NCBI GenBank assembly: GCA_963666365.2
Contig: CAXXNF010000001.1
Span: 1,248,001-1,312,000 of the forward strand
Source of the DNA: Syntrophales bacterium
GTDB taxonomy: Bacteria; Desulfobacterota; Syntrophia; Syntrophales; UBA2210
DNA: 64,000 nt
Direction: 5' to 3'
Shown here: positions 12,747 through 17,637 of the stretch, one piece after another
How the letters are laid out: the number at the start of each line of letters is the position of its first letter
Numbering within the stretch: position 1 is the first letter of the stretch
Position numbers and translations under genes: made by a program
Notes under the pieces: model-generated
Databases searched by the model: none
What the model was told of the DNA's origin: nothing
Seen by the model: only the letters and a program-made list of their open reading frames with translations

Positions 12747-13817
12747 TCAGACACTGAACCGTATATTCAATATGTCGCCGTCACCGACAATGTATTCTTT
12801 CCCCTCGAGGCGAAAACGGCCCTGATCCTTGACGGCTTTTTCTGACCCGCACTCGATGAGATCCTGATAGGAAAAACACTCGGCACGGATAAATCCACGG
12901 GCCAGGTCGGAATGGATCGATCCGGCCGCAGCAAGCGCGGTATCTCCGCGGCGGATGGTCCAGGCCCGCACCTCGTCCGTACCCACCGTGAGAAAGCTGA
13001 TATAGCCGAGGGTCTCATAGGCAAAACGGGTCAGCCGGTCGCGGGCGGAATCGGTGATCCCCATGTCGTCCATAAACAGCCTGGCCTCTTCCTCATCGGT
13101 CAGTCGGGAGAGTTCCATCTCGAAAGCGCCGGCAAACTCGATTACCCGGCATCTTTTTTCAATTTCTTGAAGCAGATCGCCGTTGTTGCCGAATGTGGCC
13201 TCACCGGAATTGAGCACGATGAGCACGGGTTTTTTCGAAACAAACTGAAAACCGGCAATGATCTTTTCTTCGCCGTCACTGAAGGCCATTTCTCTGATCG
13301 AACGATTATCGTTCAATTGTTCCTGAATTTTCCCGAGTATACGCTCCTCGGCCTCCAGTTCGGCCGTCTTTTTGCCTCGCTTATAGCTCCACTCGATGCG
13401 TTCGAGACGGGTTTCGATAACGATAAGATCGGCCAGAATAAGCTCCGCTTCAATTGTTTCGATATCCTGCAGGGGGTTCGGTTCTCCCGAAAGGTCGTCA
13501 TGAAAGTTCCGCAGCACCAGCGCCAGCGCATCAAGGGTTTTTATCAACGCCATCTGACCGGCGGAGAACCCGCCGCCCCGGACCGAACCTCCCGAAAATC
13601 CGACGAAGTCAACCACCTCGACGGTTGCATAGGTTACCTTTTTCGGTGAATACATTCCGGCAAGGCGCTCAACCCGCTCATCGGCTACGGTGACTACGGC
13701 GATGTTCGGTTCCGCCTTGGCCGATGCATAAGCGGCGACCTCCGCGTTCGATTTAGTCAGGGCGTTGAATATCGTTGTCTTACCGGAGTTGGGAAGACCC
13801 AGTAACCCGATTTTCAT
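12747..13817 (-). CDS. ychF: YchF/Obg-like ATPase
   Basis: GLPNSGKTTIFNALT, EVRAWTI, AGSIHSDLARGFIRAE, RLEGKEYIVGDGDI. Confidence 0.9.
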   Translation of the reverse strand: MKIGLLGLPNSGKTTIFNALTKSNAEVAAYASAKAEPNIAVVTVADERVERLAGMYSPKKVTYATVEVVDFVGFSGGSVRGGGFSAGQMALIKTLDALALVLRNFHDDLSGEPNPLQDIETIEAELILADLIVIETRLERIEWSYKRGKKTAELEAEERILGKIQEQLNDNRSIREMAFSDGEEKIIAGFQFVSKKPVLIVLNSGEATFGNNGDLLQEIEKRCRVIEFAGAFEMELSRLTDEEEARLFMDDMGITDSARDRLTRFAYETLGYISFLTVGTDEVRAWTIRRGDTALAAAGSIHSDLARGFIRAECFSYQDLIECGSEKAVKDQGRFRLEGKEYIVGDGDILNIRFSV

Positions 13818-14061
13818 TCTCTCTTTACTCCTCCATGTATCCGGTCAATTGCTGTCATATCAAAAGGATGGAACGTAGGTCCAACGGGGCGGTTTGTCAA
13901 GGATTATTTACCGGCAACCGGCGGGCCGGCATGGACATTCCCGCGGATGGCTTGTGTTTCGGACATGCATGACTATATTATAGGGACAACGGCTTCAAGG
14001 AGGATGTGTGCGCATAATCATGTCGCCCCTCTGATCCCTTGAATCCTCAAGAGGAGGCATT

Positions 14062-14211
14062 ATGCAGGAAATAGTAATTCTCATCCTTATTGTGGGCGGC
14101 TGGTTTGCGCTGCAGAAGTGGATCCTTCCGAAGATGGGGGTGGACACCTGAATGAGCAGGGCCTGTCAGGTGACAGACAAAAAACCGAAAGAAGAAACAG
14201 GAAAAGACTGA
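14062..14211 (+). CDS. Small single-TM protein, candidate selenoprotein (U30; UxxxxC)
   Basis: GAGGAGG RBS; MQEIVILILIVGGWFALQKWILPKMGVDT-TGA-MSRACQVTDKKPKEETGKD; hairpin CTGTC-AGGT-GACAG 11 nt after the TGA. Confidence 0.72.
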
Positions 14212-14243: not shown

Positions 14244-14939
14244 TCAGGGCAATTTTCTTTCTCCCTCCGCAAGGGCCTCAAGGCCTTTGCGGTTTTCAAT
14301 TTTAATGCGGGCACCATGGCCTTCGATCAGGCCCGCCTCTTCCATTCTCGCGAGAATTCGGGAAAGCGTCTCGGGAGTGGTCCCCAAAAAGCTCGCCAGA
14401 TTGCCCTTTGACATGTCAAGGACAACCATGTCCCTGTCCGGCTGCTGCGCTTCCAGAAAGAGGAGATATGCGGCAAGCCGCCCCGGCGCCTCGCGCAGAG
14501 AAAGCCCCTCGATCACCCGCACAAAACGTCGCAGGCGAAGAGAAAGCACCCCGAGCATGGCCATTGCAAACGAGGGGTCGTCGCCGATAAGACCGATCAA
14601 CGATTCGCGGCCGACAAAGAGAAGGCGACCGGCCTCGAAGGCCTCGGCATAGGCGGGAAAGGCCGTCCCCGAAAAGAGGGCGCCCTCGCCGACGGTTTCT
14701 CCCGGGCCGGCGAGATGGAGGATCTGTTCCTTCCCCTCGGGGGAAAGCTTATAAATTTTGACCCGCCCCTCCAGCACCATATAAAGACCGCCTGCCCTCT
14801 CCCCCTCCGAAAACACCGCCTGGCCCCCGGCATAGGAACGGACCAGGGCGATCTTCGCCAGCCGCTCCCGCTGGGCGGAAGAAAACCCCGAAAAGAGGGG
14901 AACGGAAGATATATGCTGAAGAATATTATTCCGGTTCAT
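14244..14939 (-). CDS. Crp/Fnr-family transcriptional regulator (HcpR-like)
   Basis: cNMP-binding domain (EGRVKIYKLSPEGKEQIL) and HTH (LGTTPETLSRIL). Confidence 0.92.
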   Translation of the reverse strand: MNRNNILQHISSVPLFSGFSSAQRERLAKIALVRSYAGGQAVFSEGERAGGLYMVLEGRVKIYKLSPEGKEQILHLAGPGETVGEGALFSGTAFPAYAEAFEAGRLLFVGRESLIGLIGDDPSFAMAMLGVLSLRLRRFVRVIEGLSLREAPGRLAAYLLFLEAQQPDRDMVVLDMSKGNLASFLGTTPETLSRILARMEEAGLIEGHGARIKIENRKGLEALAEGERKLP

Positions 14940-15537: not shown

Positions 15538-15620
15538 AGCACTTCGCCTCAGGAATGATTATTGTACGAACAACAGTGCAGGGACCGACAGGGAACAGTA
15601 CATCGAAAGGGGAAGACGCC

Positions 15621-16370
15621 ATGAAGATACGAAGAAAAATCATTACCATAGATGAAGAAAAATGCGACGGCTGCGGGCTCTGCACCGAGGCGTGCAGTGA
15701 AGGCGCCATCAGGATCGAAGGCGGCAAGGCCAGGCTGATCGCCGAAAAATATTGCGACGGCCTCGGCGCCTGTCTGGGAGAATGCCCGCAGGGTGCAATC
15801 ACCATCACCGAGCGGGATGCGGAGGCCTTTGACGAGATCGCCGTGGAGGCCCACCTGCAACAGCACGTGGCGCCTGTCGCCGACGCGTTACCCATGGCCT
15901 GCGGTTGTCCCTCCTCCCATATCGAGACCTTTTCACGCCCCTCTGCAGGCGACGCACCACCACTATGTGCCGCAGCACCTCGAGGCGGCTCATCGGAACT
16001 CACCCACTGGCCCGTCCAGATCAGGCTCGTGCCCCCCACGGCGCCGTTCCTTGAAAACGCCGATCTTCTTGTAGCGGCCGACTGCACGCCGGTGGCCTGC
16101 GGGCGGTTTCAGGAGGACTTCGTGAAGGGACGGACAGTGATGCTGGGATGTCCCAAATTCGACGATGTCGAGGACTACGTGGAAAAATTCGCCCGGATAT
16201 TTCAGCAGGCGCACATTCGAAGCATCGTCGTCCTTGTCATGGAGGTTCCCTGCTGTCAGGGACTGCCGATCATTCTTCAAAGGGCCATGGCGCTCTCGGG
16301 AAAGCGGATTCCCGTGGAAAGGGTGGTTGTGTCAACCCGGGGCGAAATTGTGGAAAAACAGACACTATGA
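15621..16370 (+). CDS. 4Fe-4S dicluster ferredoxin-domain protein
   Basis: CDGCGLCTEAC, CDGLGACLGECP, WPVQIRLV, GCPKFD, MEVPCCQG. Confidence 0.92.
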   Translation: MKIRRKIITIDEEKCDGCGLCTEACSEGAIRIEGGKARLIAEKYCDGLGACLGECPQGAITITERDAEAFDEIAVEAHLQQHVAPVADALPMACGCPSSHIETFSRPSAGDAPPLCAAAPRGGSSELTHWPVQIRLVPPTAPFLENADLLVAADCTPVACGRFQEDFVKGRTVMLGCPKFDDVEDYVEKFARIFQQAHIRSIVVLVMEVPCCQGLPIILQRAMALSGKRIPVERVVVSTRGEIVEKQTL

Positions 16371-16517: not shown

Positions 16518-16997
16518 TCACGGCTCGAGTTGCGCCTTTTTGATTTCCTTCAGTGCCTTTGGAATCGTGTCCTTGGGACTGACTTTATACCAGGCGTTTC
16601 TCACCCTTCCGTTCTCGCCTATCAGAAAGGAAGAGCGGATTATGCCCATGAATTTTTTCCCGTACATATTTTTTTCGCCCCACACATCGTAGGACCGGGC
16701 AACGTGGCGATCTTCATCGGCAAGCAGAGGAAATCCCAGTGCCTCCTTGTCGTCGAACTTCTTCTGGGCCGACGGGGCATCGGGACTGATGCCGATTACC
16801 GAGACCCCCAGAGACTCAAGCTCATCTTTGGCATCCCGCACCGCCCGGGCCTGGGTGGTACATCCCGACGTGCCCGCCTTCGGATAAAAGTAGATCAGCA
16901 GCTTGCGCCCCTTGTAGTCGGATAGTCTGACCATGTGTTCGTTCTGATCGTTAAGCGCGAAATCGGGCGCCCTGTCTCCCCGCTTGAGCTGAGCCAT
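16518..16997 (-). CDS. bcp: Peroxiredoxin Bcp/PrxQ
   Basis: YFYPKAGTSGCT, GISPD, IIRSSFLI; GGAGG RBS. Confidence 0.92.
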   Translation of the reverse strand: MAQLKRGDRAPDFALNDQNEHMVRLSDYKGRKLLIYFYPKAGTSGCTTQARAVRDAKDELESLGVSVIGISPDAPSAQKKFDDKEALGFPLLADEDRHVARSYDVWGEKNMYGKKFMGIIRSSFLIGENGRVRNAWYKVSPKDTIPKALKEIKKAQLEP

Positions 16998-17001
16998 CGC
17001 T

Positions 17002-17637
17002 TCACCTCCCTTGAATAGAGTTGTCAGCGGCCAGGTACTCGTCAAGATAGCGGATGATATCCTGTTCTCGGCCGAAATAAAAGTGGTCGGCGCCATCGAC
17101 CACTGAAAGCAGGCCCCCCGCGCGGGGGGCCTCGTTGCGCAACACATCGAGGGGGCAGAATTGATCCCGGTCGCCGCATATGATAAGCCCGCATTTTCCT
17201 GAAAGGGTCGCAAGATCGAAGGGAACATACTCGATGGGCGGCGACACCATAATACAATCGGCAAAGACCGCCCCTCCGGAGAGAACCCGCGAGTTCACCC
17301 AGGCGCCGAAGGAATACCCCGACAGGATAATGTCGCCGATCCCCTTCTCTTCCAGAAAGGACCGCGCGCCCCTGACATCCTCCTGCTCTCCGATGCCGTT
17401 ATCGAAGCGCCCCTCGCTTCTGCCGACCCCTCTGAAATTGAAGCGGAGCGTCGCATATCCCCGTCCCTGAAAAGCGGCAACCATGGCTTCCACCACGTTG
17501 TTGTGCATGCTGCCCCCCATCTGGGAATGGGGATGGGTAATCAGTGCCCCGCCGGTGCCGGCGCCGGATTGGTAGAACCCTTCAAGAGATAGTGATCCGC
17601 TTTTAAACCACACCTTCTCTTCGTTCATGATCATCAT
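17002..17637 (-). CDS. Alpha/beta hydrolase
   Basis: HPHSQMGGSM, RFNFRGVGRSEG, GYSFG, GADHF. Confidence 0.9.
   Translation of the reverse strand: MMIMNEEKVWFKSGSLSLEGFYQSGAGTGGALITHPHSQMGGSMHNNVVEAMVAAFQGRGYATLRFNFRGVGRSEGRFDNGIGEQEDVRGARSFLEEKGIGDIILSGYSFGAWVNSRVLSGGAVFADCIMVSPPIEYVPFDLATLSGKCGLIICGDRDQFCPLDVLRNEAPRAGGLLSVVDGADHFYFGREQDIIRYLDEYLAADNSIQGR

Follow-up and report, generated by a model that had tools for sequence, protein, structure and literature searches.

The 64,000-nt stretch of DNA analysed here (the window; positions 1,248,001 to 1,312,000 of contig CAXXNF010000001.1, assembly GCA_963666365.2, from a Syntrophales bacterium) contains a very short open reading frame (ORF) with an in-frame TGA at positions 14149..14151, and the question is whether this codon ends a 29-residue peptide or is read as selenocysteine (Sec) in a longer one. 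Read through, the frame occupies positions 14062..14211 of the + strand and consists of an ATG start codon at 14062, 48 further codons, and a terminating TGA; judging from its translation and from orthologs of the same architecture, it is a complete selenoprotein ORF of 49 codons plus stop. Its product, with the TGA read as Sec, is MQEIVILILIVGGWFALQKWILPKMGVDT-U-MSRACQVTDKKPKEETGKD, which starts with M-Q-E and has the core G-V-D-T-U-M-S-R-A-C. A Shine-Dalgarno-like GAGGAGG (14051..14057, +) lies 4 nt before the start codon and is the strong ribosome-binding site pointed out in the preliminary description of this locus; that description was correct to the base for the TGA and the M-S-R-A-C that follows it. 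As it also remarked, the ORF track misses the gene: the list made with translation table 11 gives only a 29-aa stump at 14062..14151. Sequence comparisons, set out below, make it very probable that window positions 14062-14211 represent a genuine selenoprotein gene.

The TGA at codon 30 is kept in the orthologs. When 61 related genomes are searched in six frames with the read-through peptide, 41 match rows have E ≤ 1.1e-4, coming from 39 of these genomes (matches at E ≥ 0.03 were treated as noise); an in-frame TGA is present in all 41, and the alignments cross it. In a survey of the phylum, which covered 301 evenly sampled genomes from 201 genera, a match is found in 138 genomes and 94 genera, and all the match rows contain the TGA except for five, four without an internal stop and one with TAA only. 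Recurrence of the same TGA-bearing ORF across the relatives and the phylum is far more than expected by chance. The frame remains open for 17 to 40 codons past the TGA in every ortholog and stops at an equivalent place with TAA, TAG, or TGA, and most of the listed orthologs have GGAGG-like motifs before the start.

Conservation does not end at the TGA; had it done so, this would, according to the preliminary description, have spoken against a selenoprotein. Across 17 orthologs, residues W14, L17, Q18, I21, L22, P23, G26, T29, U30, and C35 never vary, the last of these lying beyond the TGA. Cys35, the partner of Sec30 in a U-x4-C pair, is encoded in the window by TGT (14164..14166, +) and is kept in 66 of 66 Sec forms, with TGC in 47 and TGT in 19 of them. 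Ser32 is found in 47 of the 66, encoded by AGC or AGT in 34 and by TCN in 13, and Gly33 is found in 39, with all four GGN codons in use. The use of both codon families for Ser32, both codons for Cys35, and four codons for Gly33 indicates that the region after the TGA evolves like a protein.

The small selenoprotein gene is found in a single copy in the genome. One related genome (G017) has two copies (L051 and L052) at distant sites, one of them adjoining a gene for a CoA-disulfide reductase-rhodanese protein.

Homologs with Cys at the U position, which the preliminary description had suggested looking for, are found in number. A word-indexed protein search yields 292 relatives at E ≤ 0.01, and an exhaustive search yields 1101 cluster representatives at E ≤ 0.001. 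Among 263 family proteins gathered from public collections, at least 42 have Cys at the Sec position, with the consensus L-P-x-F-G-I-x-T-C-M-S-G-A-C, and across 21 Cys forms the segment T29-C30-M-S-G-A-C35 varies little or not at all. A further 142 of the 263 end at the TGA, after ...G-x-x-T, as 29-residue stumps, and 35 have Trp at the Sec position. The Trp entries are likely to have come from the use of a TGA=Trp translation table on short contigs by some pipelines; stumps and Trp entries alike are a systematic annotation artefact of the family. Several deposited family proteins carry spurious N-terminal extensions, and the names given in databases are "hypothetical protein" or blank.

The machinery for Sec insertion is encoded in the same genome. 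The selA (608 bits), selB (361.5 bits), and selD (382.8 bits) genes and tRNA-Sec (76.3 bits) all score over the respective cut-offs, as the reading of the TGA as Sec in the preliminary description implied they should. The selD gene (G000:C1:483557-484486, outside the window) itself has an in-frame TGA and thus encodes the selenoprotein form of selenophosphate synthetase. Among the 61 related genomes, selB is over the cut-off in 57. Outside the phylum, it is over the cut-off in 4 of 5 genomes with the Sec form versus 2 of 5 genomes with the Cys form; the complete record of Tundrisphaera lichenicola has the Sec form and selB, and in the complete record of Lacipirellula limnantheis, which has the Cys form, selB was not found.

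A hairpin that could serve as the Sec insertion sequence (SECIS) begins 11 nt past the UGA (14163..14176, +). Its arms, CTGTC (14163-14167) and GACAG (14172-14176), enclose the loop AGGT (14168-14171), which lies 16 nt past the UGA, and form a 5-bp stem (CUGUC/GACAG in the RNA) with a 4-nt loop (AGGU). The preliminary description had located this hairpin and suggested that it acts as a SECIS; it is present as claimed, and pairing across orthologs marks it as a conserved, minimal SECIS candidate among the relatives. The model of bacterial SECIS elements in a May 2026 review (PMC13188914, Fig. 2) specifies a loop of 3 to 9 nt, a stem of 4 to 16 bp, a G in the first two loop positions, a UGA-to-loop distance of 16 to 37 nt, and a minimum free energy (MFE) of -7.5 kcal/mol or below. 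The window hairpin agrees with this model in loop, stem, position of the G, and spacing but falls short in energy. Within the taxonomic family to which the window belongs, a CUGCC-AGGU-GGCAG hairpin occupies a fixed place, with 75 of 75 cells paired in 15 orthologs. The window and a same-genus relative carry one compensatory C:G to U:A change, made up of a synonymous TGC-to-TGT replacement and a GCA-to-ACA replacement.

Because a covariance model cannot align the hairpins of other clades, hairpins were counted mechanically, with the Cys forms and shuffled sequences as controls. The count used 67 Sec forms, drawn from two phyla plus some further groups (a spurious regular-expression row for L052 was removed from the initial 68, and L051, L092, and L108 were left unscored) and 31 Cys forms. 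Of the 67 Sec forms, 63 have a perfectly paired hairpin of 5 bp or more that starts 8 to 21 nt after the codon; of the 31 Cys forms, 11 do. With mononucleotide shuffling, the mean is 19.0 and the maximum 32 for the 68 Sec rows, and the mean is 10.7 for the 31 Cys rows, so in the Cys forms the hairpin is at the chance level. The hairpins of the Sec forms comprise more than 40 distinct stem sequences, and 62 of 63 loops have a G within their two initial positions. The significance of the window hairpin thus comes from the comparison with relatives, the single sequence being marginal. One Cys form (L074:1523-1570), with TGC at the Sec position, retains a GTGCGGT-GTC-ACCGCAC hairpin typical of related Sec forms, which looks like a fossil SECIS left by a recent Sec-to-Cys conversion.

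Several observations weigh against the assignment of this hairpin as a SECIS. Alone, it has an energy of -4.7 kcal/mol, short of the -7.5 item; the MFE of the UGA plus 60 nt in the window is -8.0 kcal/mol, and among the Sec rows 41 of 68 reach -7.5 and 27 fall short. The 76-nt fold around the window hairpin is ordinary compared with shuffles (z = -1.15). Covariation within the clade is thin, with a single compensatory pair and an observed score that 3 of 500 shuffles reach. RNAalifold finds 0 pairs in the ungapped alignment of 66 Sec sequences, because the register of the hairpin differs between clades, and the covariance model of the window's clade found 18 sites, nearly all of them in its own order. 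The hairpin also overlaps codons 35 to 39, so the conservation of C-Q-V-A/T-D may partly be RNA conservation. The Fisher and Mann-Whitney values of the hairpin comparison make the case look too strong, since genomes of relatives do not count as independent. The Rfam search gave no relevant match, only a 15-bit chance match to a long noncoding RNA.

The decoding envisaged for this gene follows the ordinary bacterial mechanism: SelB and tRNA-Sec of the organism would recode UGA-30, and the recoding signal would be the minimal SECIS hairpin within the coding sequence. The second TGA (14209..14211, +), 60 nt past UGA-30, is the same codon used as a stop; with no hairpin after it, it would lead to termination.

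The AlphaFold2 model, built from a 72-sequence alignment, has a helix over residues 2 to 24 (14065..14133, +; pLDDT 85 to 89, where pLDDT is the predicted local distance difference test score), in agreement with the N-terminal transmembrane helix of the preliminary description; the mean pLDDT is 69.8, and the U-x4-C segment and the tail are low-confidence coil. Within the helix, W14, L17, Q18, L22, and P23 are conserved, position 18 being a polar Gln or Asn. The Lys or Arg residues that come after the helix point to an N-out, C-in topology, and the 49-residue product ends in a short charged tail after T-U-M-S-R-A-C. In this model, the product is a single-pass membrane protein with a flexible segment that bears Sec30 and Cys35. 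A lipoprotein signal was considered and rejected, as neither the Sec nor the Cys is preceded by a lipobox.

In the window, the small gene is flanked by two genes on the minus strand, the gene for the YchF ATPase (ychF, 12747-13817; TIGR00092, 294.3 bits) and, on the far side, a convergent gene for a Crp/Fnr regulator (14244-14939). A terminator-like hairpin of 11 pairs followed by TTTTCAATTT (14267..14292, +; consensus scan) lies 55 nt past the stop codon and overlaps the 3' end of the Crp/Fnr gene; this site is weak on its own, as the scan found 1 such site versus 0.9 expected in shuffles. A sigma-70 scan at the locus found no promoter. An alignment of the upstream regions of the window and the same-genus relative, which have diverged in sequence, shows no defensible shared regulatory site. 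Further along, positions 15555-16370 (+) encode a 271-aa protein that begins with a 2x[4Fe-4S] ferredoxin domain and continues into a Cys-rich C-terminal part without a family match; homologs of this protein adjoin the small selenoprotein gene and hcp in related genera. Just past this ferredoxin-like gene lie, judging from the translations, ORFs for a Bcp-type peroxiredoxin-like protein (16518-17264, -) and an alpha/beta-hydrolase-like protein (17002-17637, -).

What the protein might do was judged mainly from gene neighbourhoods in other phyla. A profile search with the Cys forms confirmed 537 loci in contigs representing one genome per species; the best 80 of these were used, and 79 were parsed. 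The best 80 come mostly from Planctomycetota, with some records from Desulfuromonadales and Geobacteraceae and one from LCP-89, and the 79 parsed loci include 48 with TGA and 31 with Cys at position 30. Counting as neighbours the genes within three genes of the small gene, a protein combining the MBL fold with rhodanese (persulfide-dioxygenase type) is found in 37 of the 79 loci and TauE/SafE in 23, in seven of which the two genes are within 4 nt or overlap. Less frequent neighbours include an ECF sigma factor (12 loci), DsrE-like (11), ArsR/BigR-like (10), thioredoxin (9), type III SQR-like (8), CoA-disulfide reductase-rhodanese (5), and YeeE/YedE (5) proteins. At least one neighbour of the sulfur type is present in 52 of the 79 loci. 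A role as an anti-sigma factor was also considered and was rejected, since only 12 of the 79 loci have a nearby ECF sigma gene and the N-terminal tail is just 1 to 3 residues long.

Across the 58 loci from the window's own phylum, a thioredoxin or TlpA-like redoxin is found in 5, a CcdA-type DsbD_TM protein in 4, a CoA-disulfide reductase-rhodanese protein in 2, and a Crp/Fnr regulator in 8, with Hcp and YgbA in two or three loci each. In 9 of the 58 loci, all from the window's order, a ferredoxin-like gene lies close to the small gene. In one metagenome-assembled genome (L085:4001-5485), no stop codon separates the small Sec-form ORF from the type III SQR-like ORF that follows in the same frame; either the two are naturally fused, which would give Rosetta-stone support for a link to sulfur, or a stop codon is missing from a GC-rich assembly.

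The common thread of the neighbours in these loci is thiol, persulfide, and sulfite chemistry, and this favours, tentatively, a membrane-tethered selenol/thiol shuttle for reactive sulfur. The Sec/Cys pair would cycle between the selenol/thiol and selenenylsulfide states on the cytoplasmic face of the membrane, and the tethered pair might carry sulfane sulfur or sulfite, or serve in disulfide exchange, in partnership with thioredoxin and rhodanese-type sulfurtransferases. In some lineages, gene adjacency hints that it could be an accessory subunit of TauE/SafE-type exporters. The preliminary description had proposed a small redox- or metal-binding membrane peptide of uncertain function, which is still a fair statement, as gene context adds only a hint of reactive-sulfur and thiol-disulfide chemistry. 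A more specific and more speculative version, which we hold to be somewhat doubtful, is that this is the first bacterial family of single-pass "micro-selenoproteins," which would act in sulfide detoxification as a selenol relay or gate of sulfane sulfur or sulfite for TauE/SafE-type exporters and the rhodanese-dioxygenase.

The sulfur-shuttle proposal is weakened by the gene content of the window's own lineage. The functional reading rests mostly on loci from another phylum. Within the window's phylum the neighbours are variable, the largest neighbour cluster covering 9 of 58 loci, and the neighbours in the window itself (ychF, Crp/Fnr, and the ferredoxin-like gene) are not sulfur genes. The only clear TauE/SafE gene of the genome (53843-54538, -; 116.5 bits) is some 40 kb away. 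The explanation as a whole, in which the selenoprotein identity is the firm part and the shuttle a tentative one, is rated as highly likely, a shade below the selenoprotein identity by itself.

The alternative that survives best contests only the functional half of this explanation: the gene would encode a real selenoprotein, but one in which the Sec/Cys pair serves as a binding site for a metal (Cu, Hg, Zn, or Ni) or, in an oligomer, for an Fe-S cluster, so that the protein would be a membrane metallochaperone. A flexible segment bearing a pair of soft ligands spaced five residues apart would suit thiophilic metals, and the polar Gln or Asn at position 18 of the helix is of a residue type that drives helix association, a dimer offering four ligands. 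By name, some neighbours are of a metal type: a CsoR-family repressor in one locus (L055), the ArsR/SmtB regulators in 10 of the 79 loci, and also HlyD/RND efflux genes; several of the listed bacterial selenoproteins do handle metals (Table 1 of PMC13188914). However, the CsoR and ArsR families also include sensors of persulfide and sulfite, and the second-best NCBIfam match of the ArsR neighbour is BigR (50.9 bits, below the cut-off). Sulfur enzymes dominate the neighbours, and no recurring P-type ATPase or other metal transporter, and no MerT/MerP, is found among the neighbour clusters. Metal binding thus appears unlikely, though it deserves consideration.

Slightly less probable still is a role of the selenoprotein in nitrosative or redox stress in this lineage, as part of a regulon of the HcpR type (Crp/Fnr) with the hybrid-cluster protein and a ferredoxin-like partner; examples of such a role would be a membrane anchor or a selenol reactive with nitric oxide (NO). 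Hcp, YgbA, and HcpR are members of nitrosative-stress regulons. A ferredoxin-like gene of about 245 aa with N-terminal Fer4 domains is found at or near the small gene in the 9 loci noted above, including the window, sometimes upstream and sometimes downstream of it. The Crp/Fnr regulators of 8 of the 58 loci, one of them the regulator at 14244-14939, fit the same picture, as do the Prismane/Hcp genes of L048 and L049 and the YgbA_NO genes of L048 and L050. This association is, however, confined to one order and is absent from the other loci across the phylum as well as from the 79 loci of other phyla, and the upstream comparison of the window with its same-genus relative yielded no shared site for binding of a regulator.

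It is very improbable that translation simply ends at the TGA, leaving a 29-residue hydrophobic peptide, with the hairpin and the conservation due to an RNA element (a terminator, an attenuator, or a stability element). Gene callers do yield exactly the 29-aa ORF, more than half of the collected proteins (the 142 stumps) end there, and the window hairpin is small, in a region that folds no better than shuffles. However, the codon use at Cys35, Ser32, and Gly33 is that of a protein, the frame is open past the TGA in every ortholog, and the Cys homologs have no stop there. What comes after the hairpin on the + strand is an A-rich run instead of a T-run, the terminator-like site is located farther along (14267-14292), and in the Cys forms hairpins do not exceed chance. 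That an alternative genetic code or general suppression causes the TGA to be read as Trp or Cys, to which the 35 collected proteins with Trp at the position would testify, can practically be dismissed, as the same ORF terminates with TGA 60 nt on, TGA is a stop in the orthologs and neighbouring genes, the genome has a complete Sec system, the true homologs have Cys and not Trp in this column, and a position-specific hairpin accompanies the TGA.

If the selenoprotein reading with the sulfur shuttle is true, this family, which almost half of the genomes sampled from the phylum contain and which also occurs in Planctomycetota, would be among the commonest selenoproteins still missing from annotation, and it would run on an unusually small SECIS (a 5-bp stem and a 4-nt loop). 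Current pipelines miss or shorten the gene; a family profile would correct many genome annotations and raise the selenoproteome counts in the window's phylum and in Planctomycetota. Should the link to the rhodanese-dioxygenase, TauE, and SQR hold, the protein would be an unrecognised component of bacterial detoxification of sulfide and persulfide. A 49-residue Sec-x4-Cys membrane peptide is also a minimal system, accessible to chemical synthesis, for asking what advantage selenium has over sulfur at the surface of a membrane, and it bears on the question of the smallest working bacterial SECIS.

The window gene appears to be the local representative of a widespread and large family that has apparently not been described. 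Searches of Pfam-A and NCBIfam 20.0 give only sub-threshold noise for the window peptide (E up to 10) and noise for 15 Cys forms (E up to 1), and the PDB contains no relative (best E, 0.68). The nearest ESM Atlas cluster (123 members, score 0.85) is an unnamed "hypothetical protein." The MerT-type mercuric transport selenoprotein is not a match either, as PF02411 does not hit the window peptide or the Cys forms. Table 1 of PMC13188914 lists 119 families of prokaryotic selenoproteins, each with a domain identifier, and has no small membrane U-x4-C protein among them; Planctomycetota are not mentioned in the text of that review. Literature text searches with the motif CMSGAC and related terms found no such family, and neither do the available passages of the Haft and Gwadz preprint describe one. 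In the accessible literature no described member was found, although the OS_HP1 and OS_HP2 alignments of the 2007 Olavius symbiont paper, or Haft and Tolstoy 2025, might show one.

Compared with known systems, the protein resembles the bacterial selenoproteins that have a Sec/Cys redox pair and a SECIS inside the ORF, such as the UxxC/CxxU thioredoxin-fold families, in its in-frame UGA, its Cys-form homologs, its presumed dependence on selA, selB, selC, and selD, and a nearby Cys that could resolve a selenenylsulfide. A further parallel is the hairpin directly downstream of the UGA, with an early loop G and a loop 16 nt past the UGA. Unlike those proteins, it has no thioredoxin fold or globular domain, being only 49 residues long with one transmembrane helix and a U-x4-C arrangement. 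TsoA is described as the "LULAXC motif selenoprotein" (NF045695), and the Tso neighbourhood includes a rhodanese/DsbD-like selenoprotein and an ArsR-type regulator (PMC13188914). Going by this table description, TsoA shares with the window family a Sec followed by a Cys a few residues on and, by name, rhodanese-type and ArsR-type partners, but its L-U-L-A-x-C is a U-x3-C motif and that of the window family is T-U-[ML]-x-x-[AS]-C. The NF045695 model has no match to the window peptide (E ≤ 10) or to the 15 Cys forms (E ≤ 1).

The minimal SECIS of Escherichia coli fdhF is reportedly an upper stem-loop 11 nt past the UGA, a result ascribed to Liu et al. in 1998. The stem in the window likewise begins exactly 11 nt past the UGA, and its loop contains G-G-U, but this candidate has a stem of only 5 bp and a 4-nt loop, with no predicted bulged U. 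In overall layout, there are eukaryotic parallels: SELENOK and SELENOS are small proteins with a single transmembrane helix and a Sec near the C terminus, in a disordered cytosolic segment, specified by a SECIS in the 3' untranslated region. The window protein is likewise small and predicted to be single-pass, its Sec would lie in a disordered stretch facing the cytosol, and by analogy it may work in a similar way; it differs in that its Sec lies six residues past the predicted helix and its SECIS candidate is inside the ORF. No relationship in sequence to these two proteins was found, none having been looked for. Finally, AcrZ, KdpF, and MgtS are small membrane proteins that modulate transporters and have neither a redox-active pair nor selenocysteine. 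The window family is similar to these in its size of about 50 residues, its one helix, and the close adjacency to TauE/SafE genes in seven loci of other phyla (4 nt or less, or overlapping), whereas the redox pair and the selenocysteine are found only in the window family.

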